Below, in pieces: positions 3,766 to 62,127 of a stretch of DNA of 64,000 nucleotides; position 1 is the first letter of the stretch; every line of letters starts with the position of its first letter. Source of the DNA: Holophagae bacterium (GTDB lineage: Bacteria; Acidobacteriota; Thermoanaerobaculia; Thermoanaerobaculales; Thermoanaerobaculaceae); assembly GCA_012516935.1 (NCBI GenBank), contig JAAYVZ010000046.1, positions 21,441-85,440 of the forward strand, read 5' to 3'. The notes beneath the pieces are model-generated. The model did not search any database. It was given only the letters and a program-made list of their open reading frames with translations, and was not told the origin of the DNA. Made by a program: the position numbers and the translations under genes.

Positions 3766-4416
3766 ATGAAGCTTTTCATCGATACCGCCAACGTCGCTGA
3801 GATCGCCGAAGCCGCATCCTGGGGGATCCTGGATGGTGTGACGACCAACCCCTCCCTCGTCGCCAAGGAGGGACGCCCGTATCGGGAGCTGCTAGCAGAG
3901 ATCTGCCGTATCGTCGCCGGACCGGTCTCGGCCGAGGTGCTGGCGACCGAAGCGGACGCCATGGAGCGGGAAGGCCGCGAGCTGGCAGGGATTGCCGAGA
4001 ACGTCGTGGTCAAGCTGCCGATCACCAAGGACGGTCTGCGGGTCTGCACCCGTTTCGCGGAGGAGGGGATACCTACCAACCTCACGCTCTGCTTCTCCCC
4101 GGCCCAGGCCCTGCTCGTGGCCAAGGCCGGCGCGACCTACGTGAGCCCATTCGTCGGGCGGCTCGACGACAGCGGCCACGATGGCATGCAGCTCGTACGC
4201 GAGATGGTACAGATCTACGACGCCTACGAGTTTGCCACCCAGGTGTTGGTGGCCTCGGTGCGCCATCCGCAGCACGTGGTCGAGGCGACACTGGCAGGTG
4301 CGGACGTCGCCACCGTGCCGTTCAAGATCCTCGAGCAGCTCTTCCACCACCCCTTGACCGAGATCGGCATCCAACGCTTCCTCGCCGACTACCGCGCGGC
4401 CAGGGACGTGCATTGA
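3766..4416 (+). CDS. tal: transaldolase, short MipB/Fsa-type (~216 aa)
   Basis: [13 protein letters not shown]...GVTTNPSL... matches the short transaldolase / fructose-6-phosphate aldolase family. It begins 27 nt after gyrA. Confidence 0.85.
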
Positions 4417-4444
4417 TGAGGCGACAGCGGCGCGAGTGACGTGC

Positions 4445-4476
4445 GGCCAACATTAAATGTTCGGCCATTCTTGACA
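4445..4476 (+). promoter_or_regulatory. AT-rich palindrome GGCCAACATT-A-AATGTTCGGCC followed by TTGACA (-35-like) upstream of the MocR/PdxR-like gene
   Basis: A rare AT-rich dyad in a >70% GC region. TTGACA lies 14 nt upstream of ATG 4491 with TACGCT 17 nt further. It could be an operator, a tal terminator hairpin, or both. Confidence 0.3.
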
Positions 4477-4490
4477 ATGGCTGAACCAGG

Positions 4491-5888
4491 ATGTACGCTT
4501 CGCGCGTGCTGGACGAGCTCCATGCGACAGCGCGCCACGCCATCACCGGAGATGCTTCCCGCCCGCTTTACCTACGGCTCGCGGAGGCCTTGACGCCCCA
4601 CGTCGCATCGGTAGGGGGCAACCTGCCGTCGGCGCGCCGCCTGGCCGGTGCGTTGGGTGTCAACCGTGCCACCGTCACCGCCGCCTATCGTGAGCTCTCG
4701 CGGCAGGGGCTGCTGGTGCTGCGGCCGGGTAGGCCGCGCCGCGGCGCCTACGGACAGCCGGCCTCGCAGCCGGTGGTGCCTGCGGACGGGCCCATCGACC
4801 TCGCGCGCTATGCCCCCGATCGCGAGCTACTGCCAGCCGGCAGGACGTTCGAGTGGCTGGGGGTTGGCGCTGCCGAAGGGGACGCTGTCGCCCAGTACGG
4901 AGATGCGTTGGGGTTCGGGCCGCTCCGCGAGTGGGTGACGCAGCGCCTGTCAGGCTACGGCATTCCCAGCCGCTCTGACTGTGTCATCCTGACCGGTGGC
5001 GTGCAGAACGCCCTCGATCTGCTGTTTCGAGCGCACCTCAATAGCGGCGACACGGTGCTGGTGGAGGACCCCTCGTACCCCGGCCTGCCGCCACTGCTGG
5101 CGCTGCACGGCGTCCACCCCGTGGGTGTCCCGGTGGGCGTCCACGGCCTTGACGTCGAGGCGTTGCGGGCTCTCGCCGTGCGCGAGCGTCCGCGCCTGGC
5201 GATCCTCACGCCCACCTTGCAGAACCCGAGTGGCGAGGTGCTCGGTGCCGGTGCACGCGGGGCGGTGCTGGAGACCTTGCGGCAGGTCGGATCGATCGTG
5301 ATCGAGGAGTTCTTCGACCCCGCCCTCGTGAGCGACGCCCCGGTGCCACCGCCGCTCGCCTCGCTCGACAGGCGGGTGGTGGTGGTCGGCTCGTTCTCGA
5401 AGGCGCTCTTCCCCGGGCTACGGGTGGGGTGGATCTCAGGCCCGTCCGAGCTGTTGGCCAAGGTCTCCCAGGTCAAGCAGGGCGCCGATCTGGCGGGGAG
5501 CGCGTTCCTCGAGGCGGCGGCGTGGACGCTCTGCGCCCGGGGGATCTTCACCTCGCAGTGCCAGCGGTTGCGACACCTGGCCGCTGAGCGGAGGGCGCAG
5601 GTGATGGCGGCGCTCGAGCAGGTACGAGGGGAGCTGGCCTGGAGTCGGCCGCGGGGCGGGTTCTCGATACTCGTGCAGTTGCCCCGCGGACAGAGCGCCC
5701 GAACCGTGGCGGAGAGGGCTGCCGCCCTCGGCGCCTGGGTGTTGGCGGGACCGGCGATGTCGGTCTCGGGTCGGGACGATGTTTTGCGCGTTGCGTTTGC
5801 CGCGGTCGGGGGGGAGCGCCTCGCACGCGGGCTCGGGTTTTTGAAGCGGGCGCTGGCGCCGGGAGCGGCGTCACCGGCCCTGGTTTGA
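4491..5888 (+). CDS. MocR/GntR-family regulator: wHTH plus class-I aminotransferase-like domain (PdxR-like)
   Basis: 465 aa. The N-terminal GntR wHTH region ([31 protein letters not shown]) is followed by a PLP aminotransferase fold. It ends 13 nt before pdxS on the same strand. Confidence 0.8.
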
Positions 5889-39778: not shown

Positions 39779-42123
39779 TTGATCTTCACCATGCTGCCCT
39801 GGATGATGTTGAGGCCGCTAGCCTCGCTGCGGACGAGCGCCCCCTTGACCGTGGCCTGGGTGCTGCCAGAAAGCTTCGCGGTGCCGTTGCTCTCGACGGT
39901 GGCGCTGCTGGTGCCCGAGATGGTGGCCGTGGCGCCCCTCGCCGAGTAGTCGGACACTGCGTGATCGCTGATGTTCGAGGCCGTGCTGTTGATATCGTCG
40001 CCGGCGTTGAGGGCGATCTTGGACTGCGCCGTGACCGAGAAGTTCTTGCACAGGACCGAGACGTCGTCCTGGGCGGAGAGGGTGATCGACTTCGCCCTGA
40101 GCGTGTAGCTGCCCTCGGCCTCGAAGACGATGTCGCCCTTGGTCGAGCAGGTGATGGTGCTGCCCGAGATATCGAGCTTGAAGAAGTGGCCGCCGCCCTG
40201 GTCGCTGATGACGATGGAGCCCGAGGCGTCGTCGATGAGGATGAAGTGCCCGTTGTGACTCTGGATGAGGATGCGTTGGTTGGCGTCGTCCAGCTCCACG
40301 CGATGGCGTTCGGTGGTGAGCAGCTTCACGAACTTGTTCGTGTCGTCGAGAACGAGGGCGTTTTCGTTCTTGGTCCAGATCTGGATTCGCTCGAGCTCGT
40401 CGTTGAGATACATGCGGTGCTCGTGGTTGGTGCGCAGGTAGATGCCGCGCTTGTCGTCCTTCTCGGACATCAGGATGAGGTGGTCGTCGGCGGTGCGCAG
40501 CGCGATGGTGTTGCCGAGGTCGTCGGAGAGATCCGCCATCGAAAGGCTTTGGTTGCCCACGGTGGCGAGGGTGATGGCGCCGCGGTTGCTGCCTTCTTGC
40601 CGCTCGAGGTCCTGCATGACCAGGTGCTGGTTGCCGCCGGTGTTGAGGCGGATCGAGCCGTTCTTGTCGTCGAGCACGAGCTGGTGCTGGTACGGCGTCA
40701 GGATGCGGTTGCGCACCAGCTCGGTCGGCTGCACGATCGGCCGCTTGTCGGCGTTGTAGACGCTGCCGATGATGAGCGGGTTGTCGGGGTCGCCGTCGAG
40801 GAAGTCGACCACCACCTCGTCGCCGATGAGCGGGTGGAACTGGATGCCGTGCTTTTTCTGGGTGCTCTCATCCATGCCGGCATAGGGCGTCGTGACGCGA
40901 ACCCAGCACGAGCTGTTCTCGTCGTTCTGGCCGTCCGGGTCCCAGTGGAACTGCACCTTGGCGCGCCCGAGCTCGTCCATGTAGATCTTCGCGTCGTCGG
41001 GGCCGACCACGGTGGCCGTCTGCACGTTGATGAAGGGCTTCGGGATGTCTTGGGGAGGGCGGAAGACGGGGTCCTTGCGAAGGGCGGTGAGGGAGACCGA
41101 GTACTGCACCCCGCTATCGGCCTCCTGAGATGCGGAGTGGTCAACCGCCAGCAGCACCCAGTCGCCGTTCAGGTCCGAACGGTACGCCCGTGAGAGCGAC
41201 ATCACGCATCCGGCGGAGGCCGAGCGCCAGTCGCCGGTGGCGGCGAGGACCTTGCGCATCGCCGCTTCGGCCTCGACCGCGACCTTGGCGAGGGTACGGC
41301 CGCGACCGTCGTCCCGGTAGCGCTCGACGTTGTAGTCGTAGATCTCGAGGTCGGTGTTGCGCGGGGCGGTCTGCTCGACCCGTAGCGGCTTGCCGGGGTC
41401 GCGGTAGTCGTAATCCTTGTAGCGCACCTTGCCGGTATACGCGGACTCCTCATAGGTGAGGCTCGACAGGTACTCGTCCGCCGGTGCGAGGTCGCCGGTG
41501 GGGGTCTTGTACTGCACGCTCGACTCGGGGGCACAGGTGCCGTAATGAGCGGATTGGTCGCCGATGACCATCATCTCTTTCCCGTCGTGCGTGAAGTAGT
41601 AGAAGATCCCCTCCTCCTGCATGAGGCGGGAGATGAAAGCGAGGTCGGTCTCGCGGTACTGCACGCAGTACTCGCGCTCCGGATAGGAGCCGAGCCTGGG
41701 GTCGTACTTGCCGGACATGCCGCGCTCGTCGAGCACCTGCTTGATGATCGTGTCGGCGGACTTGCCCTGGAAGATCCGGCAGTGCCGGTGCTGGCCCAGC
41801 AGCCACAGCGTCGGCACCACCTCGACCGAGTAGATCCCCTGCTCCTGGTCGGCGCCGCCGAGCCCCGGCAAGCGGGCGTCGAGCTGCGAGAAGTGGGAGA
41901 CGATCCCGTAGTACTTCTTCTCCTTGCCGGCCCACTGCCGCTTGATCTCGACGCTCTGCCGGATCTGCGCGGCGACGTCGACGGCCGAGTCGCGCGACCA
42001 CAGCGTCAGGTGGTAGGCGAAAAGCGCCGAGATCTCCTCGTGGCCAGAGAACGACAGGACCTGGAAGAGGGTGCCACCGATCTTGCACGAGTACTGGGCC
42101 GTGTCAGCCCGCACAGCGCTCAT
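39775..42123 (-). CDS. vgrG: T6SS spike protein VgrG (TssI; gp27/gp5-like, C-terminal beta-helix)
   Basis: 782 aa. The N-terminal gp27-like region is followed by the gp5 OB-fold and ~15 beta-helical repeats (e.g. ALVLDDTNKFVKLLTTERHRVELDDANQRILIQSH...). Amino-acid composition is K/N/D/I/Y-rich and GC content is lower than its neighbours. Confidence 0.85.
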   Translation of the reverse strand: MSAVRADTAQYSCKIGGTLFQVLSFSGHEEISALFAYHLTLWSRDSAVDVAAQIRQSVEIKRQWAGKEKKYYGIVSHFSQLDARLPGLGGADQEQGIYSVEVVPTLWLLGQHRHCRIFQGKSADTIIKQVLDERGMSGKYDPRLGSYPEREYCVQYRETDLAFISRLMQEEGIFYYFTHDGKEMMVIGDQSAHYGTCAPESSVQYKTPTGDLAPADEYLSSLTYEESAYTGKVRYKDYDYRDPGKPLRVEQTAPRNTDLEIYDYNVERYRDDGRGRTLAKVAVEAEAAMRKVLAATGDWRSASAGCVMSLSRAYRSDLNGDWVLLAVDHSASQEADSGVQYSVSLTALRKDPVFRPPQDIPKPFINVQTATVVGPDDAKIYMDELGRAKVQFHWDPDGQNDENSSCWVRVTTPYAGMDESTQKKHGIQFHPLIGDEVVVDFLDGDPDNPLIIGSVYNADKRPIVQPTELVRNRILTPYQHQLVLDDKNGSIRLNTGGNQHLVMQDLERQEGSNRGAITLATVGNQSLSMADLSDDLGNTIALRTADDHLILMSEKDDKRGIYLRTNHEHRMYLNDELERIQIWTKNENALVLDDTNKFVKLLTTERHRVELDDANQRILIQSHNGHFILIDDASGSIVISDQGGGHFFKLDISGSTITCSTKGDIVFEAEGSYTLRAKSITLSAQDDVSVLCKNFSVTAQSKIALNAGDDINSTASNISDHAVSDYSARGATATISGTSSATVESNGTAKLSGSTQATVKGALVRSEASGLNIIQGSMVKIN

Positions 42124-45130: not shown

Positions 45131-45483
45131 TGTCGAGTCCTCCCTCCCGTCTCTGCGGCCCGACGGGAGGCTCATCATACGGCAACCCCAGGTGCCGTGC
45201 TCACGCGTTCCCACAAACCCTGGCTCGAGATGACGAGCTGCAGCTCGCCGGTGGTCGGAGTGTGCCGGAAAGCCCCCGCCCCTGATTGCGAAGCCGCTAC
45301 GACGTGTCGCCCCGCTATCGCCCAGGGTCGTAACGCTGGGCAATCGAAGCGCGGCTGCGAGCTGGCGTGCCGGTGCTGGTGGCATTCGCCACCAGCCAGC
45401 CCGTGGGCGCGGCATCTGGCGCTCCACCCACCCGTCGGGGCGCGTCTCGACTCGGTTGAGGCTTAACGCGCCAGGATCGGCGG

Positions 45484-47862
45484 GTGAATCGGCTGGCCGC
45501 ACTCCACCGACGGCTCCAGATGACTATACTGGTCAGGGAGGACGAGACGGACAGGGGGACCCTCACAGCCGATAGCGATCGCGCCGTCGGCCACGAGCGC
45601 CGGCGGCACCTCTTCCTGCTCGCTACCATCGCCATCTCGGTGTTGGCCCTCCTGGTCGTGCAGCTTCGTGAGGGCCGCCTGAGCGCCGGGCGGGCGATCG
45701 GTAGCCGGGTCGAAGCAAATGCCCTGGGCCTCGAGGTCGCCGACGTCTTCCCTGGCTCGCCGGCCGAGCAGGGTGGGCTCAAGGCCGGCGACATCATCCT
45801 CTCGGTCAACCGCCAGCAGGTCTCCGACCTCAACCGATACCACCGAATAGCGAAGGGGTTCGTGCCGCGCCAGGAGGCGGTCTTCGGTGTGCGTCGCGGT
45901 GAGCGGATGCTGGATCTGCGGATCACGCCCGGCGAGCCCTATCGGTGGGGCCGCTGGCTTGTCACCGCGGTTGCCGTGCTGGGTCACCTCGCGCTGGGGT
46001 GGCTGGCGATGGCGCAGCGCACCTCGGACGTACGGTCGCGCCTGCTGTTCCTTTTGACCTGGGCGGTGGCGCTGGAGCTCGCCCTCCCCCAGAGCCTGAT
46101 CGGTAACCAGGCTCTGCAGCAGCTCGCCCGAGTGCTGTTCTACTTGGTGTCGGGGCTGCAGTTTGGGTTCGAGCTCCACCTCGTATCGTTGCTTCCGGCC
46201 CCTCGGGCATGGGTGCAGCAACGGCGCTGGCTCATCCCGACGTTCTACGTTTTCGGTGGTGGCTTGGGGGTGCTCTCGGCACTCGGTTACGTGGCAAGAC
46301 AAGCCGGCGTCGACATCGCGGCGCCCTGGAGCTGGCTGACCTCGAATGTGCTCCTCAACCAGGTGCTGCTGCCGGTGTGGGTGGTAACGGTTGCGGGGTT
46401 GCTCGCGTACCCGGCCATCACCTATCCCGAGCCGCAGGGACGGCACCAGGCGGGACTCATGCTTTTGGGCTTGCTGCCCTGGATGGTGCTGGTGCTCGCG
46501 CTCACGGTGACGAACCTGCTCGGAATCCCCACTCCGACCTGGGTCGACAGCCTGTGGTCGCCGGTGCTGCTGCTGTTCCCCCTCGCGATCTTCATCGCCA
46601 TCTTCCGATACCACCTGTTCGACTTGGCGTTGGTTGTCCGGCGGGGCTTCATCTACACGACGTTGACGACAACCTTGCTGCTGGTGTTCTACGCGGCGTT
46701 GGGAGCTGGCGGGGTACTGCTGTCGGGGCTGTTCGGCAGCTCGAGCTCGGTCTGGGTCGTGGCCTCGGCGACGCTCGTTTTGGGGCTGCTTTTCGCTCCG
46801 CTACGGCGTTTCCTGCAAGAGCAGATCGACCGCCGGTTCTTTCCCGAGCGTCAGGCGCTGCGACAGCAGCTCACCGCCCTCGCCTCCGAGCTCGCTGCCC
46901 AGGGCAAGCTGCCGGCCATGGTCACCTACCTCAAACGGCGCCTCGTGGAGATCTTCGAGGCCGTGTCGGTAACCATCCTGGTCGCCGATCCCACGACGAG
47001 GGTGCTGGTGACCATTGACTCCTCAGCCCCGGCGTTTCGGGATGAGCTGGACCGCTCGTTGCTGCTCTCACCCGACGACCCGGGGATCGAGCTGTTGCGA
47101 CGAACCCGCCGGCCCCTGCCGGCCGAGGCGCTCGCCGAGCGCTCCGGTGTCCTGGGGCACCGGTTACGGTCGCTCGAGGTGACGCTTGCGGTGCCGCTGC
47201 TGTTCCACCAGGAGTTGGTCGGTGTGCTGCTGGTGGGGCGCGAGCGGGGTGCGGCGCCGTTCAATGCCGAGGAGATCGAGCTGCTCGAGCTGTTTTCCCA
47301 CCACGTGGCAGTGGTGATCGAGAACGCGCGGCTGTTTACCTCGGCGACGTACGAGGCGCTCACCGGGCTGTTCCGCCGCGAAGCCATCCTCGAGCAGCTC
47401 CAGCGCGAGGTGGAGCGGGCCCGCCGCTACGGCCGGCCGTTTTCTGTCGCCATGGCGGATCTCGACCACTTCAAGCGCATCAACGACCACTACGGCCACC
47501 TGACGGGCGACACCGTGCTGGCGCGGGTGGCGCAAACGCTTTCGAGCGCGATGCGCTTCTCGGATGCGATTGGCCGCTACGGCGGCGATGAGTTCCTGCT
47601 CCTGTTCCCCGAGACGAACCTCGCCGGAGCGGTCGCGGTGGCCGAGAAGATGCGGCGACAGATCGAGAGGCTGCGCGTTGACGTGCCCTCTGGCCCGCCT
47701 CTCGGTCTGACGGTGTCCCTCGGCGTGGCAACGCTCGAGATGGACGCGGCCAATCGGGAGGACGCCGCCACGGCACTGATCGACGAGGCCGATGCTAACC
47801 TCTTGCAGGCCAAGCGGGCGGGGCGCAACCGGGTGGGGCCGGCTCCTACCGCGCCGGGGTGA
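45484..47862 (+). CDS. membrane sensor diguanylate cyclase: PDZ + multi-TM + GAF + GGDEF
   Basis: PDZ (GLEVADVFPGSPAEQGGLKAGDIILSVN), ~8 TM helices, a GAF-like region, and a GGDEF domain with intact RYGGDEF and I-site-like RxxD. Alternative start ATG 45520. Confidence 0.8.
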   Translation: MNRLAALHRRLQMTILVREDETDRGTLTADSDRAVGHERRRHLFLLATIAISVLALLVVQLREGRLSAGRAIGSRVEANALGLEVADVFPGSPAEQGGLKAGDIILSVNRQQVSDLNRYHRIAKGFVPRQEAVFGVRRGERMLDLRITPGEPYRWGRWLVTAVAVLGHLALGWLAMAQRTSDVRSRLLFLLTWAVALELALPQSLIGNQALQQLARVLFYLVSGLQFGFELHLVSLLPAPRAWVQQRRWLIPTFYVFGGGLGVLSALGYVARQAGVDIAAPWSWLTSNVLLNQVLLPVWVVTVAGLLAYPAITYPEPQGRHQAGLMLLGLLPWMVLVLALTVTNLLGIPTPTWVDSLWSPVLLLFPLAIFIAIFRYHLFDLALVVRRGFIYTTLTTTLLLVFYAALGAGGVLLSGLFGSSSSVWVVASATLVLGLLFAPLRRFLQEQIDRRFFPERQALRQQLTALASELAAQGKLPAMVTYLKRRLVEIFEAVSVTILVADPTTRVLVTIDSSAPAFRDELDRSLLLSPDDPGIELLRRTRRPLPAEALAERSGVLGHRLRSLEVTLAVPLLFHQELVGVLLVGRERGAAPFNAEEIELLELFSHHVAVVIENARLFTSATYEALTGLFRREAILEQLQREVERARRYGRPFSVAMADLDHFKRINDHYGHLTGDTVLARVAQTLSSAMRFSDAIGRYGGDEFLLLFPETNLAGAVAVAEKMRRQIERLRVDVPSGPPLGLTVSLGVATLEMDAANREDAATALIDEADANLLQAKRAGRNRVGPAPTAPG

Positions 47863-50563
47863 GTTCCAGCAATGCCGTCAGCTCCTCGCGCGAGAGCTTG
47901 CGCAGAACATCCTCGCTCGGAGCCACCACCTCGCGCGCCAGCTCGAGCTTGCGCAGGATAATGCTGTCGATCCGCTCCTCGATCGTGCCCTCGGTGACCA
48001 GCTTGAAGACTTGAACCAGACGACTCTGGCCGATGCGGTGCACCCGGTCGGTGGCCTGGTTCTCGCGCGCCGGGTTCCACCAGCGGTCGTAGTGGACGAC
48101 GACCGAGGCGGCCGTGAGGTCGATCCCCACACCGGTGGCGAGCAGGCTCGCCAGCAGCACCGGCTCGTGGCGGGCGGCGTTGAAGCGCTGCACGATGCCG
48201 GCCCGGTCGCGGGTCTGGCCGGTCATCACGAGGTGTGGCAGCTCCCGCTGCCGGAGGTGGGACGACAGCAGCTCCACCATCTGCACGTACTGCGAGAAGA
48301 TGACGACGCGGTTGTCAGCCGCCAGCGCCTCGGCGAGGATCTCGTCGAGAAGCTCGATCTTGCCTGGTACGAGGTGCCGCAGCCGGGACTCCACGAGGCC
48401 GGGATGGTCGCACACCTGCTTGAGGCGGGTGAGGAGCGCGAAGATGTGCATGTACGGGATGTCGGCTGCCTCGTCCCGGAGCTGTCGCACGAGCGACGGC
48501 GCGCCGGCTGCGTGGATGCGCGCGTACAGCTCGGCCTGGCGGGGTGAGAGTCGGCAGAACGCCAGCTCCTCGTGCTTGGGTGGGAGGTCCTCGAGCACCG
48601 CCTCCTTGACGCGCCTGAGGGTGAACGGTGCCAGCACCCTGCGGAGCCGCAGGAGGTCGGCGGAGGACGGCGACTTGAAGGCCTGCCGGAAACCACGCTC
48701 GCTGCCCAGGTACCCCGGCACGACGAGGTCCATGATCGACCACAGCTCGGCGAGGCGGTTCTCGATCGGCGTGCCGGTGAGGGCGACCCGGAACCGGCCA
48801 GGAATCGTCCGCACCGCCCGCGAGCCCTTGGTGTGTGGGTTTTTTGCCCGCTGCGCTTCGTCGAAGACGACGATGTCCCACGCCTGCTCCCGCAGGGCGG
48901 CCAGCGAGCGGAGGGCGATCTCGTAGGTGGTGAGCACCACGGCCCCGGGCGGGAGGTCGTCGAGGCTACGCGCAGCGCCGTGGTAGACGACCACCGGGAG
49001 CACGGGCGCGAACGTCGCCAGCAGGTGCCGCCAGTGGTCGAGGACGCCGCGCGGGCAGACGACGAGGGGGTGGGCGTCCGGTGCGTGGGTGCGGGCCAGG
49101 CACAGCAGCGCCATGGCCTGGTGGGTCTTGCCCAACCCCATGTCGTCGGCCAACAGCGCACCGAGCCCGGTGTGGTAGAGCCGCCAGAGCCACGCCGCAC
49201 CGTGCTTCTGGTACGGCCTCAGGCGCGAGAGCAGCCCCGTCGGCTCGGGGAACGACGTGACCGGATTCAGCATGGCGTCGACCACGGCCTGGAGCTGGGC
49301 GCGCCGCACCGTGGCCGGCACCCTGATCTCGGCGAGCGCCCGCACGAGCCCGAGGCGATCGCCCACCAGCCCCCGGCTCTTCAGCTTCAGCCCGGCGCTG
49401 AGCAATGCGCCGGCGTCGGGGGCCCGCACCAGCGCCCGGCCCCGGCGCACGAAGCGGTGGCGCAGCAGCTCCCTCACCTCGGACCACTTGAGCTCGCCGT
49501 CGCTGGTCCGGTATTGCGGCCGCAGCACGACCTGCCCCTTGTCGTCCTCGTCCACCTCGACGCCCGAGAGCGTCGGCTGTAGGGGACGAGGGGTGGTGGC
49601 CAGCTCACCCTGTGGCTCGTACCAGCGCTCGTTCTTGAGCAGGAAGTGGTCGTGCATGACGAAGTTGAACGCGGCGTGGCCGCGCAGCACCAAGCGCCCG
49701 CGCTGGAAGTACGGCAACAGGGTCGGTGACACGTCGGGTGCCGGCAGCAGCAGGTCACCGTGCCGGACGAAGCGGCCGAAGCTCCGCTCGGGAAGCTCGG
49801 CGAGCGGGATGAAGTCGCCGCGGGGCGCGATGAGCCCGGGGTCGAGCACGACCTCCTCGTCGCCCTGAAGGCCGGCTCGCAGCACGGCGGCGGCCCGCAC
49901 CGTGCCGACCTTGATGCGTGCGAGGTCGCCCTCGAGCTCGAACACTCCCAGCTTCGGGAGCTCGCCCAGGAGGTACGGCACCGCCGCCCGGCCGACCAGG
50001 ACGGCCCGCATCAGCCCTGACTTGAGAAGCAGGTGGAAACGCATCCGGTCGTCCGCGAGCGACACGTGCACCGGGCCGCCACGGTGCTGGGAGAGCTGGA
50101 ACCGGAGGGCGATCTCGAGCTCGTCGAGGTACTGCACGTGGCCGAGGTCGACCTCCTGAACCCCTTCCTGGGGGGCGACCAGCAGCGGCTGCAGCGCGCG
50201 CTCCCGCCAGGTCGTCCCTGGCCCCTTGGCCACCAGGCTCGGGCGCAGCTTGACCCAGGTGAACAGGACCGCGGCCACGTGGACGCAGGGCTCCGGTCCC
50301 AGCCTCTCGCAGCGCGAGCACGATGCCCGCAGCGTCTGGGGTGCGGGCGACTCGACGAGCACCCTGGCCAGAGGGTGGAGCGTCGTGCCCTCGACCGCAG
50401 TGCCGCTCCAGGTGATCTCCGCCACCTCGCGGCCGTTGACGAGCCCGAACGCCAGCTCCGCATCGCGCCGGCCGAGGCGGCCGAGCACGTCGCCGCTCGT
50501 GAGGGTCAGCAGAAAGCTCGGAGAGCTCGACCGCTCGGCACCCATATCCGCCAAGCGTAACAT
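47846..50563 (-). CDS. SNF2-family helicase with N-terminal SWIM zinc finger (RapA/HepA-like)
   Basis: 905 aa. SWIM CSRCERLGPEPCVHVAAVLFTW. SNF2_N motif I DDMGLGKT, DEAQ box VFDEAQRAKN, C-terminal helicase motifs. Confidence 0.85.
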   Translation of the reverse strand: MLRLADMGAERSSSPSFLLTLTSGDVLGRLGRRDAELAFGLVNGREVAEITWSGTAVEGTTLHPLARVLVESPAPQTLRASCSRCERLGPEPCVHVAAVLFTWVKLRPSLVAKGPGTTWRERALQPLLVAPQEGVQEVDLGHVQYLDELEIALRFQLSQHRGGPVHVSLADDRMRFHLLLKSGLMRAVLVGRAAVPYLLGELPKLGVFELEGDLARIKVGTVRAAAVLRAGLQGDEEVVLDPGLIAPRGDFIPLAELPERSFGRFVRHGDLLLPAPDVSPTLLPYFQRGRLVLRGHAAFNFVMHDHFLLKNERWYEPQGELATTPRPLQPTLSGVEVDEDDKGQVVLRPQYRTSDGELKWSEVRELLRHRFVRRGRALVRAPDAGALLSAGLKLKSRGLVGDRLGLVRALAEIRVPATVRRAQLQAVVDAMLNPVTSFPEPTGLLSRLRPYQKHGAAWLWRLYHTGLGALLADDMGLGKTHQAMALLCLARTHAPDAHPLVVCPRGVLDHWRHLLATFAPVLPVVVYHGAARSLDDLPPGAVVLTTYEIALRSLAALREQAWDIVVFDEAQRAKNPHTKGSRAVRTIPGRFRVALTGTPIENRLAELWSIMDLVVPGYLGSERGFRQAFKSPSSADLLRLRRVLAPFTLRRVKEAVLEDLPPKHEELAFCRLSPRQAELYARIHAAGAPSLVRQLRDEAADIPYMHIFALLTRLKQVCDHPGLVESRLRHLVPGKIELLDEILAEALAADNRVVIFSQYVQMVELLSSHLRQRELPHLVMTGQTRDRAGIVQRFNAARHEPVLLASLLATGVGIDLTAASVVVHYDRWWNPARENQATDRVHRIGQSRLVQVFKLVTEGTIEERIDSIILRKLELAREVVAPSEDVLRKLSREELTALLELTPAR

Positions 50564-50618: not shown

Positions 50619-51902
50619 TCAGACGGACGCCGCGACGAGCAGGCGCTGCAGGGCGACGTTGTCGCGGTGACCGGTGAAGGCGGCGCTCACCCGCCCGCGC
50701 AGGGGGTAGCCGAGGAGGTAGAGGTCGCCGATGATGTCGAGGATCTTGTGGCGCACGAACTCGTCGGGGAAGCGCAGGGTGGTGTTGACGACGTTGTCCT
50801 CGCCGACGAGGATGAAGTTGTCGAGCCGGCCGCCCGAACCCAAGCCCAGCTCCTTGATCATCGGCAGGTCGCGCAAGAACCCGAAGGTGCGAGCTGGGGC
50901 GATCTGCGCCTGGAAGGCGTCGAAGCCAGTGAGCCGGAATGAGTAGAGCTGCTCGCCGATCGGGGGTGGGTAGCGCAAGTGGTACGTGACCTCGAGGCAG
51001 TCCGAGGGCTCGATCCGCATCCGCTTGTCCCCCTTGAGGGGAAGCTCGTACGGCTTGTCGATGACGACCTCACGCCTGGGCACCCCTTGATCCTCGATGC
51101 CGATCTCCTCGATGCGCTGGCAAAACTCGAGCGCTGAGCCGTCGAGCACCGGGATCTCGCCGTGTACCTTCACCAGCAAGTTGGTGATGCCGGCGGCGTG
51201 CAGGGTGGCGAGCAGGTGCTCGATGGTACGGATCTCCTCGCCTCCTCCGCGCAGCGTGGTCGCATACTCGGTGTCACCTACCGAGGTGAGGTGAGCTGGG
51301 ATTTGGACCCCCGCCGGCAGGGTCACGAAGTGGATGCCTGAGTCGGGTGGCAACGCCTGGAGCACCAGGCCCGTGCGGCTGCCGGAGTGCAGCCCGAGCC
51401 CGTAGATGACGAAGGCGGAACGAATCGTGCGCTGAGGTACCTGGGTGCTGCGCACGATCGGCAGCAGCGGCGGCGGCGAGAACACTCGGGCTGGCTCGCT
51501 CGCAGGTGAGGGGTCGAGCAACGAGCCGGCGCTGCCACTGCGCACCTCCAGGGCGCTTCTGAGGGTATCGACGACGCGCCCCAGGGACAGTGGCTTTTCG
51601 AGGTAGTCGTGGGCGCCGAGCTTGATCGAGCGCACGGCGGTGGTGGCTTGCCCATGCCCGGACATCATGATGATCGCGGCGTCGGGATCCATGGCGCGGA
51701 GTGCTTGTAGCGTCTCGAGACCGTCGCGATCGGGGAGCCAGACGTCGAGAAACACCGCCACCGGTCGCAGCTTTTGGTACAGGCGGAGCGCTTCCTCGCC
51801 GGACGGGGTGCTGGCGACCTCGTACCCCTCGTCGGCGAGGATCTGACCCAGGGTGGTGAGGATGCCGGGCTCGTCATCGACGATGAGGACCAGATCCTTC
51901 AT
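50619..51902 (-). CDS. lpxC: response-regulator receiver domain fused to UDP-3-O-acyl-N-acetylglucosamine deacetylase (REC-LpxC)
   Basis: Residues 1-120 form a CheY-like REC domain (LIVDDEP...FLDVWLPDRDGLETL...SGHG...LEKP). A Pro/Ser linker follows. Then comes a full LpxC domain (GLGLHSG, ...ARTFGFLRD..., EFVRHKILDIIGDLYLLG). Confidence 0.85.
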   Translation of the reverse strand: MKDLVLIVDDEPGILTTLGQILADEGYEVASTPSGEEALRLYQKLRPVAVFLDVWLPDRDGLETLQALRAMDPDAAIIMMSGHGQATTAVRSIKLGAHDYLEKPLSLGRVVDTLRSALEVRSGSAGSLLDPSPASEPARVFSPPPLLPIVRSTQVPQRTIRSAFVIYGLGLHSGSRTGLVLQALPPDSGIHFVTLPAGVQIPAHLTSVGDTEYATTLRGGGEEIRTIEHLLATLHAAGITNLLVKVHGEIPVLDGSALEFCQRIEEIGIEDQGVPRREVVIDKPYELPLKGDKRMRIEPSDCLEVTYHLRYPPPIGEQLYSFRLTGFDAFQAQIAPARTFGFLRDLPMIKELGLGSGGRLDNFILVGEDNVVNTTLRFPDEFVRHKILDIIGDLYLLGYPLRGRVSAAFTGHRDNVALQRLLVAASV

Positions 51903-54403
51903 GTCGGCAGTGTCCCGCCCAGCTCAGTGTCCGTCAACTGCCCCGAGTCCTTCGCTTCCGGAGCTGTTGCTTCCTGCACCGAAGCAGGCAGGATGTGCAG
52001 GAGGGTGCCGAGGACACCGTGGCAGGTGAGCCACTCCTGGGCGCCGAGCTCCCTCTTCCGAGCCGCCTCCTGATGGCTGCGCACGACCTCCGAAGGCAAG
52101 GCAAAATAGATGTTCTGGACCTTCCAGAAGTCCACCTCGAACGGCAACGTTGCGGCGAGCCCGACCGCCGCCGTGAGGTCCTGCAGCGGCTTGAACGCGG
52201 CGGGTTCAGCGGCCACTCGGGCAGCCAGACGATTGAGGGTGGTTCGAAGCCCGAAGGCGAGGCCCGGACCATCGAGCGCAACACCGAAAAGCTCGGCCTC
52301 CCCCAGCAGGTGGTGGATGTGCTCGAGCGGCAGTGGGTCGTCGCGCAGCGCCCGCCGCAGCCCGGCATTGAGGACGAACCCGGCGGTAGCCTGGAGGGCC
52401 TGAGGAAGGGGTGCTCCGAGGTCGGAGAGGAAGCGCATGAGCGGTGCCTGCTTCTCGTACACCTGCCGGTAGGCAGCGGCCGCCTCGTCGAGCGTGGAGT
52501 CGAGGATGAGGGCGAGGATACGGCGCTGATCGTCGCGGAACAGCGACTTGAGGGAGTAGGTGTGCTCGAAATGGTGGTCGAGGGCGCGCAGCGTCGCCGG
52601 CAGGTCGGCGCGCGAGAACGAGCTCATCGCCTCGCTCACGAGGGTGTGGTAGACCTCGTCGGCACGGCACTCCCTCACCCCGCCGGAGAGGTTGTGGTCG
52701 CCCATGTGGAGCACACCGTAGGTCAGACACGCCGACTCCCGGGTAACCGCCGAGGTGATCTCGAGGTGACCTACGGCCAGTCGCGCCCGTCCGGCCTGCG
52801 CCGTGCGGTGGTCGCGGCGATCGAGCCGGAAGACGCGCGCCAGGTGGCCGTTGCCGGCAGGCTCGAAGAGCGAGTCGATGGCGGCCTGGGCCCCGACCTT
52901 GAGGAGGTCGGCTGCCGCCGGGCGCACGAGCTTCTCGAACACCGCCCGGCCGTCTCCGTAGGCCGGGAGGTTGGACCGGGCCTGGGCGAGCAGGTCGCCA
53001 AACATCGGCTCCAGGTGCCGGCCCGTCACCGTCTCGGCGAGCTGCAGCGCCCGGGCCGCGTACTGCAGCACCTGGACGGTCTCCAGGCCGGAGATCTCGT
53101 CGAAGAACCACCCGCAGCTCGTGTACATGAGCATGGCGTGACGCTGCATCTCGCACAACCGGAGCGCGGTGATCTCCTCGCCGCGAGTGAGCGGCCGCTT
53201 GCTGTGGCGGGCGAGGAAGGCGTCGACCGAGGCCGGTGCGCGGTCCAGGATCACGTCGATGTAATCGTCGCGCGCTGCCCACACATCGCGCAGCAACTGC
53301 TCCCCGTGTTGCTCGAAGACCGCCCCGACCTCATCGCGCAGCCAGTCGAGAGCGTGGCGCAACGGCCCACGCCACGCCTGTGTCCACTCGGGGTGGCTGC
53401 CGGAGCTGCAGCCGCAGTCCGAGCGCCAGCGCTCGATGCCGTGGGCGCAGCTCCACGACGTGTTTTCGACGATCTCGACCTCGAATGCTGGCGGGTGGAT
53501 GGCGAGGAACTCGCCGTAGTTGGTGAGGCGGGCGTCACGCCCGGACTCGACGCGATCGAGCGCCCACGCCAGCGCCATGTCGCCGAAGCGGTGGTGGTGG
53601 CCGTACGTCTCACCGTCGGTGGCGATGTGCACGAGCTGGTCCCATCCGGGTTGCTCCCCGAACCCGCCGAGCAGGCGTTCGACGAACCGCTCGCCGCTGG
53701 ACAACAGCCGCTCGAACGCCACGGCACGGGATATCGGCCCGTCGTAGAAAAACACCGCGATCTGCCGCCCCTCCGGCAGCCTGACGAGGTACGGTCGGGT
53801 GGGGTCGATGCGGGCTCCGCTGACGTCCTGCCAGTGGGTGTCGCCGAGCCGCCGCACCCGGCTGGCCTGATGGGGGGCGAGGACGGTGAAGCGGATGCCG
53901 GTCGCGGCCAGCACCTCGAGCGACTCGAGATTGACCGCGGTTTCGGGCAACCACATCCCTTCCGGCTCACGCCCGAAGCGGCGGCGGAAGTCCGCCAGTC
54001 CCCAGCGCACCTGAGTGACCATATCGCGCCGCCGGGCGAGCGGCATGATGAGGTGGTTGTACACCTGCGCGAGCGCCGAGCCGTGGCCGGAGAAGCGCGC
54101 ACGGCTCTGGCGATCGGCGGCCAACACGGCGGCGTACGTCTCGCTATCGTGGTGCTCCAACCAGGCCAGCAGGGTGGGCCCAAAGTTGAAGGAGATGCGA
54201 CTGTAGTTGTTGAGAATGTTGACGATCCGACCTGCGCCATCGAGAATGCGGGCGGCCGCGTTGGGAGCGTAGCACTCGGCCGTGACGCGCTCGTTCCAGT
54301 CATGGTAGGGATAGGCCGAGTCCTGGACCTCCACCGCCTCGAACGTCGGGTTTTCCCGCGGCGGCTGGTAGAAGTGCCCGTGAATGCAGAGGTAGCGCGC
54401 CAT
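51899..54403 (-). CDS. glycoside hydrolase family 57 protein with C-terminal DUF3536-like region
   Basis: MARYLCIHGHFYQPPREN... is the GH57 N-terminal signature. 834 aa, immediately downstream of glgB. Confidence 0.8.
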   Translation of the reverse strand: MARYLCIHGHFYQPPRENPTFEAVEVQDSAYPYHDWNERVTAECYAPNAAARILDGAGRIVNILNNYSRISFNFGPTLLAWLEHHDSETYAAVLAADRQSRARFSGHGSALAQVYNHLIMPLARRRDMVTQVRWGLADFRRRFGREPEGMWLPETAVNLESLEVLAATGIRFTVLAPHQASRVRRLGDTHWQDVSGARIDPTRPYLVRLPEGRQIAVFFYDGPISRAVAFERLLSSGERFVERLLGGFGEQPGWDQLVHIATDGETYGHHHRFGDMALAWALDRVESGRDARLTNYGEFLAIHPPAFEVEIVENTSWSCAHGIERWRSDCGCSSGSHPEWTQAWRGPLRHALDWLRDEVGAVFEQHGEQLLRDVWAARDDYIDVILDRAPASVDAFLARHSKRPLTRGEEITALRLCEMQRHAMLMYTSCGWFFDEISGLETVQVLQYAARALQLAETVTGRHLEPMFGDLLAQARSNLPAYGDGRAVFEKLVRPAAADLLKVGAQAAIDSLFEPAGNGHLARVFRLDRRDHRTAQAGRARLAVGHLEITSAVTRESACLTYGVLHMGDHNLSGGVRECRADEVYHTLVSEAMSSFSRADLPATLRALDHHFEHTYSLKSLFRDDQRRILALILDSTLDEAAAAYRQVYEKQAPLMRFLSDLGAPLPQALQATAGFVLNAGLRRALRDDPLPLEHIHHLLGEAELFGVALDGPGLAFGLRTTLNRLAARVAAEPAAFKPLQDLTAAVGLAATLPFEVDFWKVQNIYFALPSEVVRSHQEAARKRELGAQEWLTCHGVLGTLLHILPASVQEATAPEAKDSGQLTDTELGGTLPT

Positions 54404-58353: not shown

Positions 58354-61300
58354 TCAGATGCGGGTTGCGACCGGCAGCGAGAAGGAAAACGTCGAGCCTT
58401 TGCCACGCTCGCTCGTGACCCAGATGCGGCCACCGTGCAGCTCGACGATCTTCTTGGCGATGGCGAGCCCCAGACCGGTGGAGGGCTCACCGGCCGTTGG
58501 CTTGGCTGAGAGCTTGCCGAAGCGCTTGAACACCACGGCGAGGTCCTCGGGGGTCAGGCCCTGGCCGGTATCCTCGACGTGCGTGACGGCCTCGCCGCTT
58601 TGCGGCTCGCAGCGGATCCGCACACACCCACCCGGATGCGTGTACTTGACGGCGTTGGATAGCAAGTTGGCCATCACCTCGACGACTCTCCTGTGATCGG
58701 CCGCGATCGGTGGAAGCGGGGGGCCGGGTTCGAGCCCGAGCTCGATGCCCTTCTTGGCGGCGAGATGCGCGTAGAGCTGCTCGCACTCCTCGAGGATCGC
58801 ACGCAGGTCCTGCGGGCGCGGCTCGAGCCGGAGCTTGCCCGACTCGATAGCCGAGATGTCGAGCAGCTCGGCGACGATCTGGTTCATCTGGTCAGCCACC
58901 TTGAGTACCCGCTCGAGATCGGCGACGACACGGGAGACGGGTTGCGTGCCAGTCTCGAGGTTGCGCACCGCGAGCCCGGTCCAGCCGGAGATGAGACCGA
59001 GCGGGTTGCGCAGGTCGTGGGCAGCGAATCCCAGGAACTCGTTCTTCTTGTCGTTGAGGACCTGCAGCTCGCCGAGCATCCTGGTCTTGGCGAATGCCGC
59101 CTGAATGTGCTCCTTGAGGCTCGACAAGAGCTGGATGTCGCGCTGTGCGAAGGCGTCGGGGTCGGTCATCGAGGCGCACAGCAGGTACCCTTCGATCCGC
59201 CCACCGATGCGGAGACGCATGACCAGCATCGCAGCTGGCAGCTCGAGGCCGATGAACTTCTCCTCACCCGGGCGCCCTTTGACGTTGCGGGCGGCGAAGA
59301 GGTCCTCATCGATCTGCTCGCTGTCCGCAACGTAACGTGCTTCGGCCTCCTCGGGCGAGAGCTCGATACCGGCGAGCTCGGCCAGAGGTGGCGCTGTGGC
59401 CGCCACGAACCGCATGAGAGGCCGGTCCCGCTCTGCGAAGAGCACCGCAATGCGCTCCGCGCCCTGGATGATCAACATCTGCTCGAGCAGGGCCTGCACG
59501 AGGTTGTCGAACGCCATCTCGGAGTTGATCGCTCGGACGATCGAGTTGATCTTCTCGAGCTGCTCCTGCTTGCTCACGAGCTCGGCGGTGCGGGCCGCGA
59601 CCAGCTCCTCAAGACGCCGCCGATCGGCTTTCAGCCAGCGCACGCGCCACGCGTACGCTCCGGCGAGCAGCGAGACGAGCGCCACGGCGGCCAGGGCCCG
59701 GAACCACCACGTGCCCCAAAACGGTGGCAGCACGACGATGGGTAGCGTCACACCCTGCTCGTTCCACACTCCGTCGTTGTTCGCTCCCTTGACGCGCAAG
59801 ACGTAGCGTCCCGGCGCGACGTGCGTGTAGGCCGCCGACGAGGTGGTGCCGGCATCGGTCCAATCGCTGTCGAATCCCTCGAGCAGGTACCGGAAACGGT
59901 TGCGCTCCGGATCGGTGTAGTCGAGGGCGGCAAACTCGATGGTGAAGCTCGACTCGTTGTGTCGGAGCTCGACCCGCTCGAGACACGCGAGTGGCGTCCC
60001 GAAGGAGACCGGCCGCCCTTGGCGCGAGAAAGAACGCAGCACGACCGGCGGCACATGGGTGTTGGAGGACACGGACATCGGGTTGAAGAGGTTGAAGCCG
60101 TTGGGACCGCCGATGAAGATCCAGCCGGCGGCATCGCGATGCGCTGAACCGCCGGAGAGGAGGTTGCTCTGCAGCCCGTCGCTCTGGGTGAACAGACGCA
60201 CCTCGCCGGTCGTCGGCTCGAGGCGGCACAGCCCGCGGTTGGTGGATAGCCAGAGCTGGCCGCGGGTGTCGGCTGTGATATCCACCACCGTCGAATCGGG
60301 CAGCCCATCGGCCTCGCCCCAGTGGCGAAAGGTACGGTTCCCGACGTCGAACGTCGCGAGCCCGCCCGCGGTGCCGACCCAGAGCGTTCCGTCGGCCGCG
60401 AGGTGAAGTGCGCGCACTCGGTTGGACGGGAGCCCCTCGGGGGGTGGACCGGCCCGAAACGCCTCCCATCGGCCGCTCGACGGGTCCAGGCGGTTCAGGC
60501 CACCAGCATCGGTGCCGACCCAGACCACGCCGGCAAGATCGCTCACCATGACCCAGGCGAACGAATCGCTGAGGGTGTCGGGGTCGTCCGGTTGGTGGCG
60601 GTAGTGCGTGAGCGAGCGCCGGTCAGCAGCCAGCACCGACACCCCTCCTTGGGTCCCCACCCAGAGCCGGCCTCTCGCATCCTCGTGCAAGGTATTGACT
60701 CGGTCGTCGATGAGAGTGCCGGGCAGCCGCGGTGAGAGACCGAGTGTCTCGAACCGTCCCCGCTCCCGGTCGAAGCGGCTCAACCCCCCGCGCCAGGTGC
60801 CCACCCAGAGGGTGCCGCTGCGGTCCTCGATCAACGAACGGATGTTGTCGGCGGGCAACGCCCCTGGGTCACCGGTCCGGCTGCGGAAGTGCTCGAAGGC
60901 GCGCCGGGAAGGATCGTAGCGATCGAGACCTCCGAGGGTGCCGACCCACAGCGCGCCGTGACGATCCCGGACGATGGCGCTGACCCGGCTGTCGGAAAGC
61001 GATCCCGGGTCGAGAGGATCGCGCTGCACGTGCAGGAACTTGGGCGGCTTGAGGTCGAGCAGGCTTGCGCCACCGCCGCGGCTGCCAATCCACAGCACAC
61101 CCGAGGTGTCCTCCCAGAGCGCCCGTACGTCGTTGTTGACGAGGCTTGCTTCCCGCACCGGGTCGTTGACGAAGCGAGTCACCTCACCGGTGGCAGCAGC
61201 GATGCGAAACAGCCCCTGACGGTTGGTGCCGATCCAGAGATCGCCTGAGGCGACCTGGCGAATGACGTTGACCGGTGCCTGGGCGAGCGTCCTCGCTTCC

Positions 61301-62127
61301 GGTGTTGTGCCGGCGAAAGCCCTAATTTCGCCGGTCCGGAAATCCAGCCGGCCGAGCCCGTGCTCGGCTCCAACCCACAGGTGTCCGGCGCGGTCGAGGT
61401 GCAGTGCTCGCACGACGACCTGTGACCCTGCGGGGGAGCCCTGCGGTCGGGTGGGCAGAGTCCGGCATCGGCCCGTTGCCGGGTCGAGGCGAGCCAGACC
61501 GTGCTCGGTGCCGACCCAGATCGTGCCGTCGGCCGATTCGGCGAGCGACCAGACGTGATCGTTCGGCAGGCTCGCTGGGTCTGCGGGGTCGTGCCGGAAG
61601 GTGATGATCGCTCCACTCTCCGGGTCCAACCGCGACAGCCCGCCGCTGAAGGTCCCTGCCCAGATCAGTCCATGCCGGTCTTCGAGCAGCGTCTGGACGC
61701 GATTGTCGTGGAGGGCGTCCGGGCGCGAAGAGTCGGCCTCGATATGGACGAAGGTCTCGGTAGCCGGCTCGAAACGATCGAGGCCACCTCCCCACGTCGC
61801 CACCCAGAGCCGACCTCGGTGGTCAACCAGCACGCAGCTGATATCGTCTTCGGCCAACGAAGCCGGGGCGACGACATCGTGGGTGAAGACCCGTGTGCCG
61901 TACCCGTCGAAGCGATTGAGGCCCTGCTCGGTGCCGAGCCAGATGTAGCCCTGGCGGTCCTGCACGATGGCATAGACGGTGTCGTGCGAGAGACCCTGCT
62001 CGGAGCCGACGCGTCGGAACCGCACCGAGACGGAAGGGAGCTCGAAGACAGCCGCCGCCGCGAGGCTGCCCAGCCCCCCCAGCACGCCGGCCAGGGCGAG
62101 GATCCACATCCACCCGCTTCGCCGCAC
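58354..62127 (-). CDS. sensor histidine kinase with large periplasmic two-component-regulator beta-propeller (Reg_prop / Y_Y_Y) domain
   Basis: 1257 aa. Signal/TM, many W/G-rich propeller repeats (...LWVGT..GL..), a Y_Y_Y-like region, TM, GAF-like region, HisKA (AAHDLRNPL), HATPase_c ([16 protein letters not shown]). No receiver domain. Confidence 0.85.

Follow-up and report, generated by a model that had tools for sequence, protein, structure and literature searches.

Can a receiver domain of a two-component system act directly on an enzyme of lipid A synthesis? This question is raised by a gene in a 64,000-nucleotide (nt) stretch of a Holophagae bacterium genome (contig JAAYVZ010000046.1, positions 21,441 to 85,440; here called the window), in which a CheY-like receiver (REC) domain is joined to LpxC. 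LpxC, a major antibiotic target, carries out the step that both commits the cell to lipid A synthesis and controls the rate of the pathway; to our knowledge, nearly all work on its regulation has been done in Proteobacteria. The known modes of control are FtsH/LapB proteolysis, Lon, and transcription (PMC12444477). The comparisons described below indicate that the gene probably encodes a working LpxC (predicted UDP-3-O-acyl-GlcNAc deacetylase) with an NtrX-type REC domain as its N terminus. With comparable likelihood, the fusion would be the reduced end member of a monophyletic, multiphylum family that began as an NtrX-like regulator fused to LpxC. More tentatively, the regulator may have been fused to its own former target, so that the bare REC domain now gates the cell's only LpxC in Thermoanaerobaculia. 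The features of the gene are as follows.

50619 to 51902, minus strand: REC::LpxC fusion gene, 427 amino acids (aa) plus the stop codon at 50619-50621 (from the open reading frame list, Pfam, TIGR00325, and the architecture of homologs)
51543 to 51902, minus strand: NtrX-type REC domain, residues 1 to 120 (from PF00072, best match to the NCBIfam NtrX model, conservation, and the AlphaFold 2 fold)
51873 to 51878, minus strand: REC acidic pair D9/D10
51744 to 51746, minus strand: REC phospho-acceptor D53, in the context FLDVWLPD
51660 to 51662, minus strand: REC S81
51594 to 51596, minus strand: REC K103
51447 to 51542, minus strand: Pro/Ser-rich linker, residues 121 to 152 (from composition, conservation profile, and model confidence [pLDDT])
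51459 to 51476, minus strand: PPPxLP motif, residues 143 to 148, the conserved part of an otherwise poorly conserved linker
50622 to 51446, minus strand: LpxC deacetylase domain, residues 153 to 427 (from PF03331, alignments with PDB LpxC structures, Foldseek, and residue conservation)
51216 to 51221, minus strand: LpxC E228/H229
50724 to 50750, minus strand: LpxC H385-K386-x2-D389-x3-D393
50667 to 50669, minus strand: LpxC H412

The fusion is encoded by an unbroken open reading frame (ORF) that starts at the most upstream ATG available, and its GC content at third codon positions (0.87) is similar to that of the adjoining genes. A preliminary description of this DNA had claimed that a complete CheY-like REC domain is fused N-terminally to LpxC, and this was borne out. 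The Pfam Response_reg profile matched residues 5 to 114 with 102 bits (cutoff, 30.2) over profile positions 1 to 110 of 111, and the Pfam LpxC profile (PF03331) matched residues 157 to 423 with 268 bits (cutoff, 27) over positions 1 to 267 of 268. The NCBIfam lpxC equivalog model TIGR00325 scored 227.7 bits, above its cutoff of 187.25, with a match that stops at profile position 273 of 297, 3 residues short of the C terminus of the fusion protein. Solved LpxC structures align end to end with the LpxC part (E, ~1e-49; 35 to 38% identity). The phospho-acceptor context FLDVWLPD was found where it had been reported, and the REC domain also has Y100 and K103-P104. The two domains are separated by the Pro/Ser linker of the same description, RSGSAGSLLDPSPASEPARVFSPPPLLPIVRS (residues 121 to 152), which contains 7 Ser and 7 Pro among its 32 residues.

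Such an architecture could arise artificially if a CheY-like gene and lpxC had been merged through a sequencing or assembly error or a wrong start codon. The reading frame, however, is uninterrupted, a protein 100% identical to the window fusion occurs independently in an ENA assembly, and the same architecture is found in hundreds of homologs from independent assemblies and several phyla. The unbroken frame and the independent homologs effectively refute this explanation, nothing was found in its favor, and its probability is negligible. Nor do the N-terminal 120 aa belong to a separate gene, as had been considered initially. All of the 120 best database relatives (65 to 100% identity, 424 to 496 aa) carry both Pfam domains in a single protein, and in an alignment of these with the fusion protein (n = 121), 103 sequences carry the same 8 residues ahead of the acidic pair, as expected if the start codon is correct. 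The named sources among these relatives were Thermoanaerobaculaceae, Thermoanaerobaculales, or Acidobacteriota metagenome-assembled genomes (MAGs), and all of the proteins were annotated as plain LpxC.

The same alignment argues against a degenerate REC domain, another possibility raised at the outset. D9, D10, S81, and K103-P104 were each present in 121/121 sequences, and D53 and Y100 were each present in 120/121. The D+2 Trp and the T+2 His were each found in 121/121, and the T+1 Gly was found in 120/121. In the LpxC domain, the equivalents of E. coli E78, H79, T191, F192, H238, K239, D242, D246, and H265 were all present in 121/121. The zinc ligands of the fusion protein are H229, H385, and D389 (equivalent to E. 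coli H79, H238, and D242), and E228, H412, D393, T339, and K386 are equivalent to E. coli E78, H265, D246, T191, and K239, respectively. In a wider comparison of 54 diverse fusions from several phyla, the phospho-acceptor Asp was retained in 52 and the Lys in 53, with the REC pocket residues ranging from 52/54 to 54/54, and the LpxC catalytic and zinc residues were retained in 54/54, save for the T339 equivalent (T/S). Because these residues are kept across such diverse fusions, both functions, REC signaling and LpxC catalysis, are evidently under selection throughout the fusion family, as judged from residue conservation.

An AlphaFold 2 (AF2) model of the fusion protein, built on a 92-sequence alignment, had a mean predicted local distance difference test score (pLDDT) of 88 and a predicted template modeling score (pTM) of 0.87. 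The REC domain was modeled as (beta-alpha)5, five strands alternating with five helices, over residues 4 to 122. The LpxC part took the two-domain beta-alpha-alpha-beta fold of LpxC, and a Foldseek search of the model against the PDB matched only solved single-domain LpxC chains, with target-normalized TM scores of 0.8 to 0.89. In the linker, pLDDT was ~60 at residues 121 to 140 and ~94 at residues 141 to 150, the conserved PPPxLP segment. A pTM of 0.87 would be unlikely if the 120-residue REC domain were placed randomly against the 275-residue LpxC domain; this value and the high pLDDT of the PPPxLP segment hint that the REC and LpxC domains have a defined mutual arrangement.

A separate observation on the model concerns residues 346 to 360 (~nt 50823 to 50867), PMIKELGLGSGGRLD, which are nearly invariant in the family and follow the T191/F192-equivalent motif. 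This segment is the sole part of the LpxC domain with a pLDDT below 50. In LpxC structures, the region that holds it contributes to the acyl-chain passage, and the segment could be a mobile element.

Is the fusion peculiar to the window genome? A taxonomic survey that used one genome per GTDB species, with the best 80 loci examined, showed that it is not and that the architecture is conserved in several phyla. Full-length fusions were found in Thermoanaerobaculia at 57 to 80% identity; in Desulfobacterota and Syntrophorhabdus at 47 to 50%; and in Myxococcota, Leptospirales, Nitrospirota, Oligoflexales, Desulfocapsaceae, and the cultured Desulfopila sp. IMCC35006 at 39 to 44%. Every Thermoanaerobaculia species representative recovered had the fusion (17 in the clade of the tree described below, plus locus L025).

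Four of the loci in the survey deserve separate mention. At L025:9977-11365, from a long-read MAG, REC::lpxC is split by an apparent frameshift within LpxC into a 462-aa ORF and a 94-aa remainder. A sequencing error is the probable cause, although a pseudogene is possible. L015 (Thermoanaerobaculia MAG) has a partial second LpxC-like stretch at 4416-4688, ~1 kb downstream of REC::lpxC, that corresponds to the C-terminal 91 residues of LpxC (62% identity to the query); it could be left over from a duplication or be an artifact of assembly. In L020 (CP070817.1; 1,094,362 bp, titled "chromosome"; Deltaproteobacteria MAG), a short REC::LpxC fusion is flanked by ATP synthase, a sigma-70-family gene, hsp20, and murI. 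Finally, L030 (JAIWHJ010000348.1), a 3.1-kb contig with a coverage of 0.34, carries a long REC-AAA-HTH-LpxC gene in a MAG labeled Promethearchaeota (Asgard archaea). Because the contig is short and of low coverage and its relatives are bacterial, the archaeal label is most likely binning contamination.

The origin of the fusion is suggested by its longer relatives. When 50%-identity representatives were searched exhaustively, the proteins nearest to the Thermoanaerobaculia clade but not part of it were 650 to 736 aa long, with LpxC at the C terminus. Three architectures were found: a long form consisting of REC, Sigma54_activat, AAA_lid_14, (HTH_8), and LpxC; an intermediate form of 483 to 505 aa consisting of REC, HTH_8, and LpxC; and a short form of 420 to 460 aa consisting of REC and LpxC. 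The long form comprised at least 120 clusters, from Thermodesulfobacteriota/Desulfobacterota, and its members are named "NtrX" by JGI and "LpxC" by NCBI. The window protein has neither an AAA+ (PF00158) nor an HTH_8 domain by Pfam, and its linker stands where the long-form relatives carry the AAA+/HTH module. In the long forms, this module is altered. None of 20 long forms had the GAFTGA loop, the "DE" of Walker B was changed to D-S/G/R, and Walker A was kept in about two-thirds. The unfused NtrX encoded beside lpxC in the Acidobacteriota locus L068 has the canonical GENGTGKE, ELFGHVMGAFTGA, and LFLDEV.

In a bootstrapped neighbor-joining tree of 192 LpxC domains, the 78 fused domains all fell in one clade (bootstrap, 80), whatever their architecture or phylum. 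Just five members of this clade were apparently unfused, and four of the five are contig-edge fragments; we therefore rejected them as cases of reversal. The window protein falls in a subclade made up of Thermoanaerobaculia only (bootstrap, 100). Other sampled Acidobacteriota LpxCs (from Vicinamibacterales and unclassified Acidobacteriota MAGs) fall outside the fusion clade. Long and short forms appeared as sisters three times, as P0139/P0128 (bootstrap, 100), P0132+P0164/P0149 (100), and P0123/P0135 (73), which indicates that the middle module was lost repeatedly.

This tree bears on whether the fused enzyme does the housekeeping work. A canonical lpxC could do so instead, leaving the fused copy as a conditional extra deacetylase or as an enzyme acting on a related substrate. 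In keeping with such an accessory role, the fused LpxC subfamily cuts across phyla without including the other Acidobacteriota LpxCs, a pattern suggestive of horizontal spread, and the equivalent of E. coli H19 varies (H/L/Q/M) in some fusions outside Thermoanaerobaculia. However, the window protein passes TIGR00325 at the equivalog level, the catalytic, zinc, and substrate-contact residues that were checked are all invariant, and the fusion was present in all of the Thermoanaerobaculia representatives recovered. Searches with both the fused and a canonical Acidobacteriota LpxC found no second intact LpxC, either in the 64 kb of the window or within the ±10 kb of any locus, the only additional match being the 91-residue fragment of L015, and no genome bin occurred twice among the best 80 genome loci. 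The fusion of L020 lies on a 1.09-Mb "chromosome" record; if that record is a complete small genome, a redundant copy is unlikely there. We consider an accessory paralog unlikely.

The REC domain points to NtrX as the source of the regulator. NtrX (NF051870) was the best NCBIfam model for the window REC domain (92 bits), the long fusion L036 (361 bits), and the unfused neighbor of lpxC in L068 (492 bits). All three scores fall below the equivalog cutoff of 600 bits, and for this reason we use the label "NtrX-like." The window REC domain is 47% identical to the REC domain of the unfused L068 NtrX, 43% identical to that of the L041 NtrX, and 45 to 52% identical to those of fused long forms, versus 26 to 35% for unrelated regulators of the same loci. 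The signature LDIW(L/M)P..DG / SGHG / DF(I/L)EKP is common to the window REC domain and these unfused NtrX receivers. The second line of evidence is gene order. A kinase of NtrY architecture (NtrY_N, HAMP, PAS, HisKA, and HATPase) is encoded beside both fused and unfused lpxC genes, in the following arrangements.

L086 (gap, 9 nt), L036, and L116: long fusion, ntrY directly upstream of ntrX::lpxC
L023 and L114: short fusion, ntrY directly upstream of REC::lpxC
L068:9989-14610 and L041:3606-8983 (Acidobacteriota/Desulfobacterota): unfused, co-oriented lpxC, then ntrY, then ntrX
L054:9983-13366 and L160:2361-6166 (Acidobacteriota/Desulfobacterota): unfused, co-oriented lpxC, then ntrY

These arrangements are relevant to the possibility that the REC domain works independently of phosphorylation, as a constitutive structural, dimerization, or localization module of the kind represented by orphan pseudo-receivers. 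No kinase is kept beside the gene in the clade of the window protein, and the high pTM of the model suggests stable docking, as such a module might show. Pseudo-receivers, however, typically lose residues of the phosphorylation pocket, and here D9, D10, D53, S81, Y100, and K103 are retained almost without exception, with the same residues in distant fusions. Furthermore, the related short fusions of L023 and L114 are still found directly behind ntrY. A phosphorylation-independent role is therefore very unlikely.

The third line of evidence concerns promoters. Sigma-54 sites were scored as TGGCAC-N5-TTGCW with at most one mismatch, with GG and GC fixed, at 12 to 80 nt upstream of lpxC. A near-consensus site was present at 40 of 84 unfused lpxC loci compared to 0 of 71 fused loci, and the background was 0.0035 per 200 nt. 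For instance, a perfect site (L068:9939-9954) lies ahead of the lpxC-ntrY-ntrX genes of L068, and sites were also found in L056, L074, L054, L042, L126, L139, L146, and others. The taxa with such unfused loci were Vicinamibacterales, other Acidobacteriota, Nitrospirota, Methylomirabilota, and Desulfobacteraceae; we found no paper that names lpxC as sigma-54 dependent in these groups. In the window, no sigma-54 promoter was found upstream of the fusion or of the GH57, glgB, aspS, and kinase genes that precede it, even with three mismatches. A regulatory link between these components has been reported elsewhere. In R. sphaeroides and C. crescentus, lpxC transcription and lipopolysaccharide levels are both influenced by NtrYX (PMC12444477, PMC7240162). 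In D. vulgaris, lpxC is the single target of DVU2934, an NtrC-family regulator that binds its promoter (PMC3333781), and sigma-54 has been linked generally to the cell exterior (PMC3162934).

A path in four steps, shown by comparison, connects these forms. First, lpxC would have had a sigma-54 promoter and lain beside the genes of an NtrY/NtrX-like system. Second, the NtrX-like regulator would have been fused to LpxC, after which the promoter was lost and the AAA+ domain decayed, as seen at GAFTGA and the Walker B glutamate. Third, the AAA+ domain and then the HTH would have been deleted. Finally, the REC domain, linker, and LpxC would have remained, as in the window protein. The best reading of the sequence comparisons is that direct phospho-control of LpxC itself took the place of an earlier transcriptional control of lpxC by NtrYX and sigma-54. 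D53 would be phosphorylated by a histidine kinase, ancestrally NtrY, and the resulting change in the REC domain would alter LpxC, much as the REC domain of CheB gates its methylesterase. We infer that D53 phosphorylation controls LpxC activity or stability. As to direction, phosphorylation would more likely increase LpxC activity, a weaker suggestion that we favor because the ancestral phosphorylated NtrX (NtrX~P) would have activated lpxC transcription.

Several points weigh against this interpretation. First, the fusion clade has short forms on its deepest branches and internal bootstrap values below 60. The polarity from long to short is therefore seen in some lineages and not at the root or specifically for the Thermoanaerobaculia clade. 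Second, no NtrY-type kinase was found near the fusion in ~30 loci of the window protein's clade, and no kinase recurs there. Third, the difference in sigma-54 sites between unfused and fused loci (Fisher p, ~1e-13) is indicative only, the loci not being phylogenetically independent. Fourth, the contact between the domains was deduced from the pTM of the model alone. Finally, NtrYX of R. sphaeroides lowers the lpxC transcript, indirectly, with an 8.8-fold change (PMC7240162), and the direction of regulation is thus not safely transferable.

Control of stability could also take the form of regulated proteolysis, in which the REC domain sets the rate of LpxC degradation by Lon, FtsH, or ClpXP and replaces the C-terminal degron of E. 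coli LpxC. An E. coli-type C-terminal degradation tail is not present in the fusion protein, with 13 to 25 aa beyond the H265 equivalent across the family, and the linker is flexible and variable. LpxC levels are proteolytically controlled in the organisms studied, and in some bacteria Lon has been proposed to degrade LpxC (PMC12444477). Lon is encoded 2.7 to 3.5 kb downstream of the fusion in the unrelated loci L085 (15761-20244, in a tig-clpP-clpX-lon cluster) and L088 (14024-16576), which could be a coincidence. On the other hand, a Lon neighborhood is not general among the fusion loci, and the pTM of the model and the confident PPPxLP segment point to a fixed contact between the domains, with which gating, allosteric or steric, would agree no less well. 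We give regulated proteolysis a small chance.

Stand-alone LpxCs (E. coli, P. aeruginosa, and A. aeolicus) have the same fold, full-length domain, zinc ligands, and catalytic residues as the fusion. They differ in that the fusion adds an N-terminal REC domain and linker, has no E. coli C-terminal FtsH degron, and sits in a distinct subclade composed almost only of fusion proteins. The window REC domain is of the type found in NtrY/NtrX systems, and related fusions retain ntrY directly upstream. Unlike NtrX and DVU2934, however, the window protein has no AAA+/HTH module and cannot act on transcription, and the window has no ntrY; control would here fall on the enzyme and not on the promoter. 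The closest parallels in layout are CheB, PleD/WspR (REC-GGDEF), and RpfG (REC-HD-GYP), in which an N-terminal REC domain is likewise joined to an enzyme by a linker. In CheB, the REC domain in its unphosphorylated state sits on the active site, an inhibition that phosphorylation lifts; similar packing would be compatible with the high pTM of the fusion model. The output of the fusion, in contrast to these regulators, is an essential metalloamidase of envelope biosynthesis and not a signaling enzyme, and the output domains are nonhomologous. The LpxC/FabZ protein (PRK13188) is also a natural LpxC fusion and shows that LpxC tolerates fusion partners. In that case, the partner is C-terminal and metabolic, and the window protein scores only 176.6 bits, in its LpxC part, versus a cutoff of 465.

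The fusion family is widespread and apparently undescribed. No description of a REC-LpxC or NtrX-LpxC fusion was found in the literature, no NCBIfam model exists for a REC-LpxC fusion, and public annotation conceals the fusion under plain "LpxC" or "NtrX." A 2025 review of lipid A regulation presents NtrYX only as a transcriptional regulator and does not mention "fusion" or "receiver." By its domain makeup, the fusion would be a response regulator with an enzymatic output. That output is an enzyme essential to the envelope, and this implies that LpxC is controlled in a new way. A REC domain inside LpxC would add a control mode in Acidobacteriota, Desulfobacterota, Nitrospirota, Myxococcota, and others. 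If this is true, an essential step of outer membrane biogenesis would be switched by phosphorylation of the enzyme itself, unlike in every LpxC mechanism reviewed, and a transcription factor would have become an allosteric domain of the very enzyme it targeted, of which few cases are documented. The series is unusually complete, running from a separate operon through a full fusion with a decaying AAA+ domain and REC-HTH-LpxC to REC-LpxC, and shows how a transcription factor can become the regulatory domain of a target enzyme. The family also serves as a "Rosetta stone," giving independent support for the link between NtrYX and lpxC seen in experiments with Rhodobacter, Caulobacter, and Desulfovibrio. 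Taken with the sigma-54 promoters upstream of unfused lpxC genes, the family suggests that control of lipid A synthesis by NtrYX and sigma-54 is an ancient trait, widespread beyond the model organisms.

Does the neighborhood of the gene reveal a partner? On the same strand, the fusion is preceded by GH57, then glgB, aspS, and a 1257-aa sensor kinase gene. The genes that bear on this question are as follows.

51899 to 54403, minus strand: GH57/DUF3536 gene upstream of the fusion, whose stop codon overlaps the fusion start by 4 nt (ACATGA)
58354 to 62127, minus strand: Reg_prop/Y_Y_Y/HisKA/HATPase sensor kinase, 1257 aa (from Pfam)

The placement of the fusion gene just downstream of glgB and GH57, in the same orientation, had been described correctly, as had the position of the nearest kinase, a propeller sensor ~6 kb away on the same strand; 6452 nt separate the kinase stop codon from the fusion start codon. 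Because the GH57 stop overlaps the fusion start, the two genes are likely cotranscribed, in the window lineage only. The order kinase-aspS-glgB-GH57-REC::lpxC is the same in L087 (86% identity). In L001 (79%), aspS-glgB-GH57 is retained with an RHS-repeat gene in place of the kinase, and in L003 (69%) and L088 (65%), the window gene order is entirely lost. With the order kept only down to 79% identity, glgB/GH57 was rejected as a functional partner at the level of the family.

The 1257-aa Reg_prop/Y_Y_Y kinase, 6.4 kb upstream, might be the cognate kinase of the fusion. By phmmer, it was the only histidine kinase detected in the 64-kb window and the fusion was the only REC protein. The kinase is an orphan with no adjoining response regulator; it has a spermidine-synthase-like gene upstream and aspS downstream, likewise in L087, where the order from kinase to fusion is also kept. 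However, the RHS-repeat gene takes its place in the 79% relative, it is absent near the gene in all of the more distant clade members, and three unrelated housekeeping/glycogen genes lie in between. As an NtrY homolog it was rejected, since the match to NtrY (56 bits) covers the HATPase catalytic domain only, a generic similarity. Not being NtrY-like, it is a weak candidate partner at best, and we regard the pairing as quite unlikely.

The wider surroundings vary. No lipid A/envelope gene cluster is conserved near the fusions of L020, L032, L033, and the window, and among the varying neighbors are ATP synthase, sigma-70, Hsp20, MurI, PilZ, and NlpC/P60 proteins. The remainder of the 64-kb window looks like ordinary chromosomal DNA, with gyrBA, tal, pdxS, dapF, a VgrG, and radical-SAM enzymes, and carries no lipid A genes, rpoN, or ntrY. 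Other features noted in the window are as follows.

39775 to 42123, minus strand: VgrG-like protein (Phage_GPD plus Phage_base_V)
45463 to 46614, minus strand: overlapping ORF without a Pfam match, probably spurious
45484 to 47862, plus strand: PDZ-GAF-GGDEF diguanylate cyclase, convergent with the SNF2 helicase gene
47846 to 50563: SNF2 helicase gene

Most of the ORFs adjoining the VgrG-like gene were scanned with Pfam, and no other type VI secretion domains were found among them. The pair formed by the SNF2 helicase and GGDEF genes is kept in L087.

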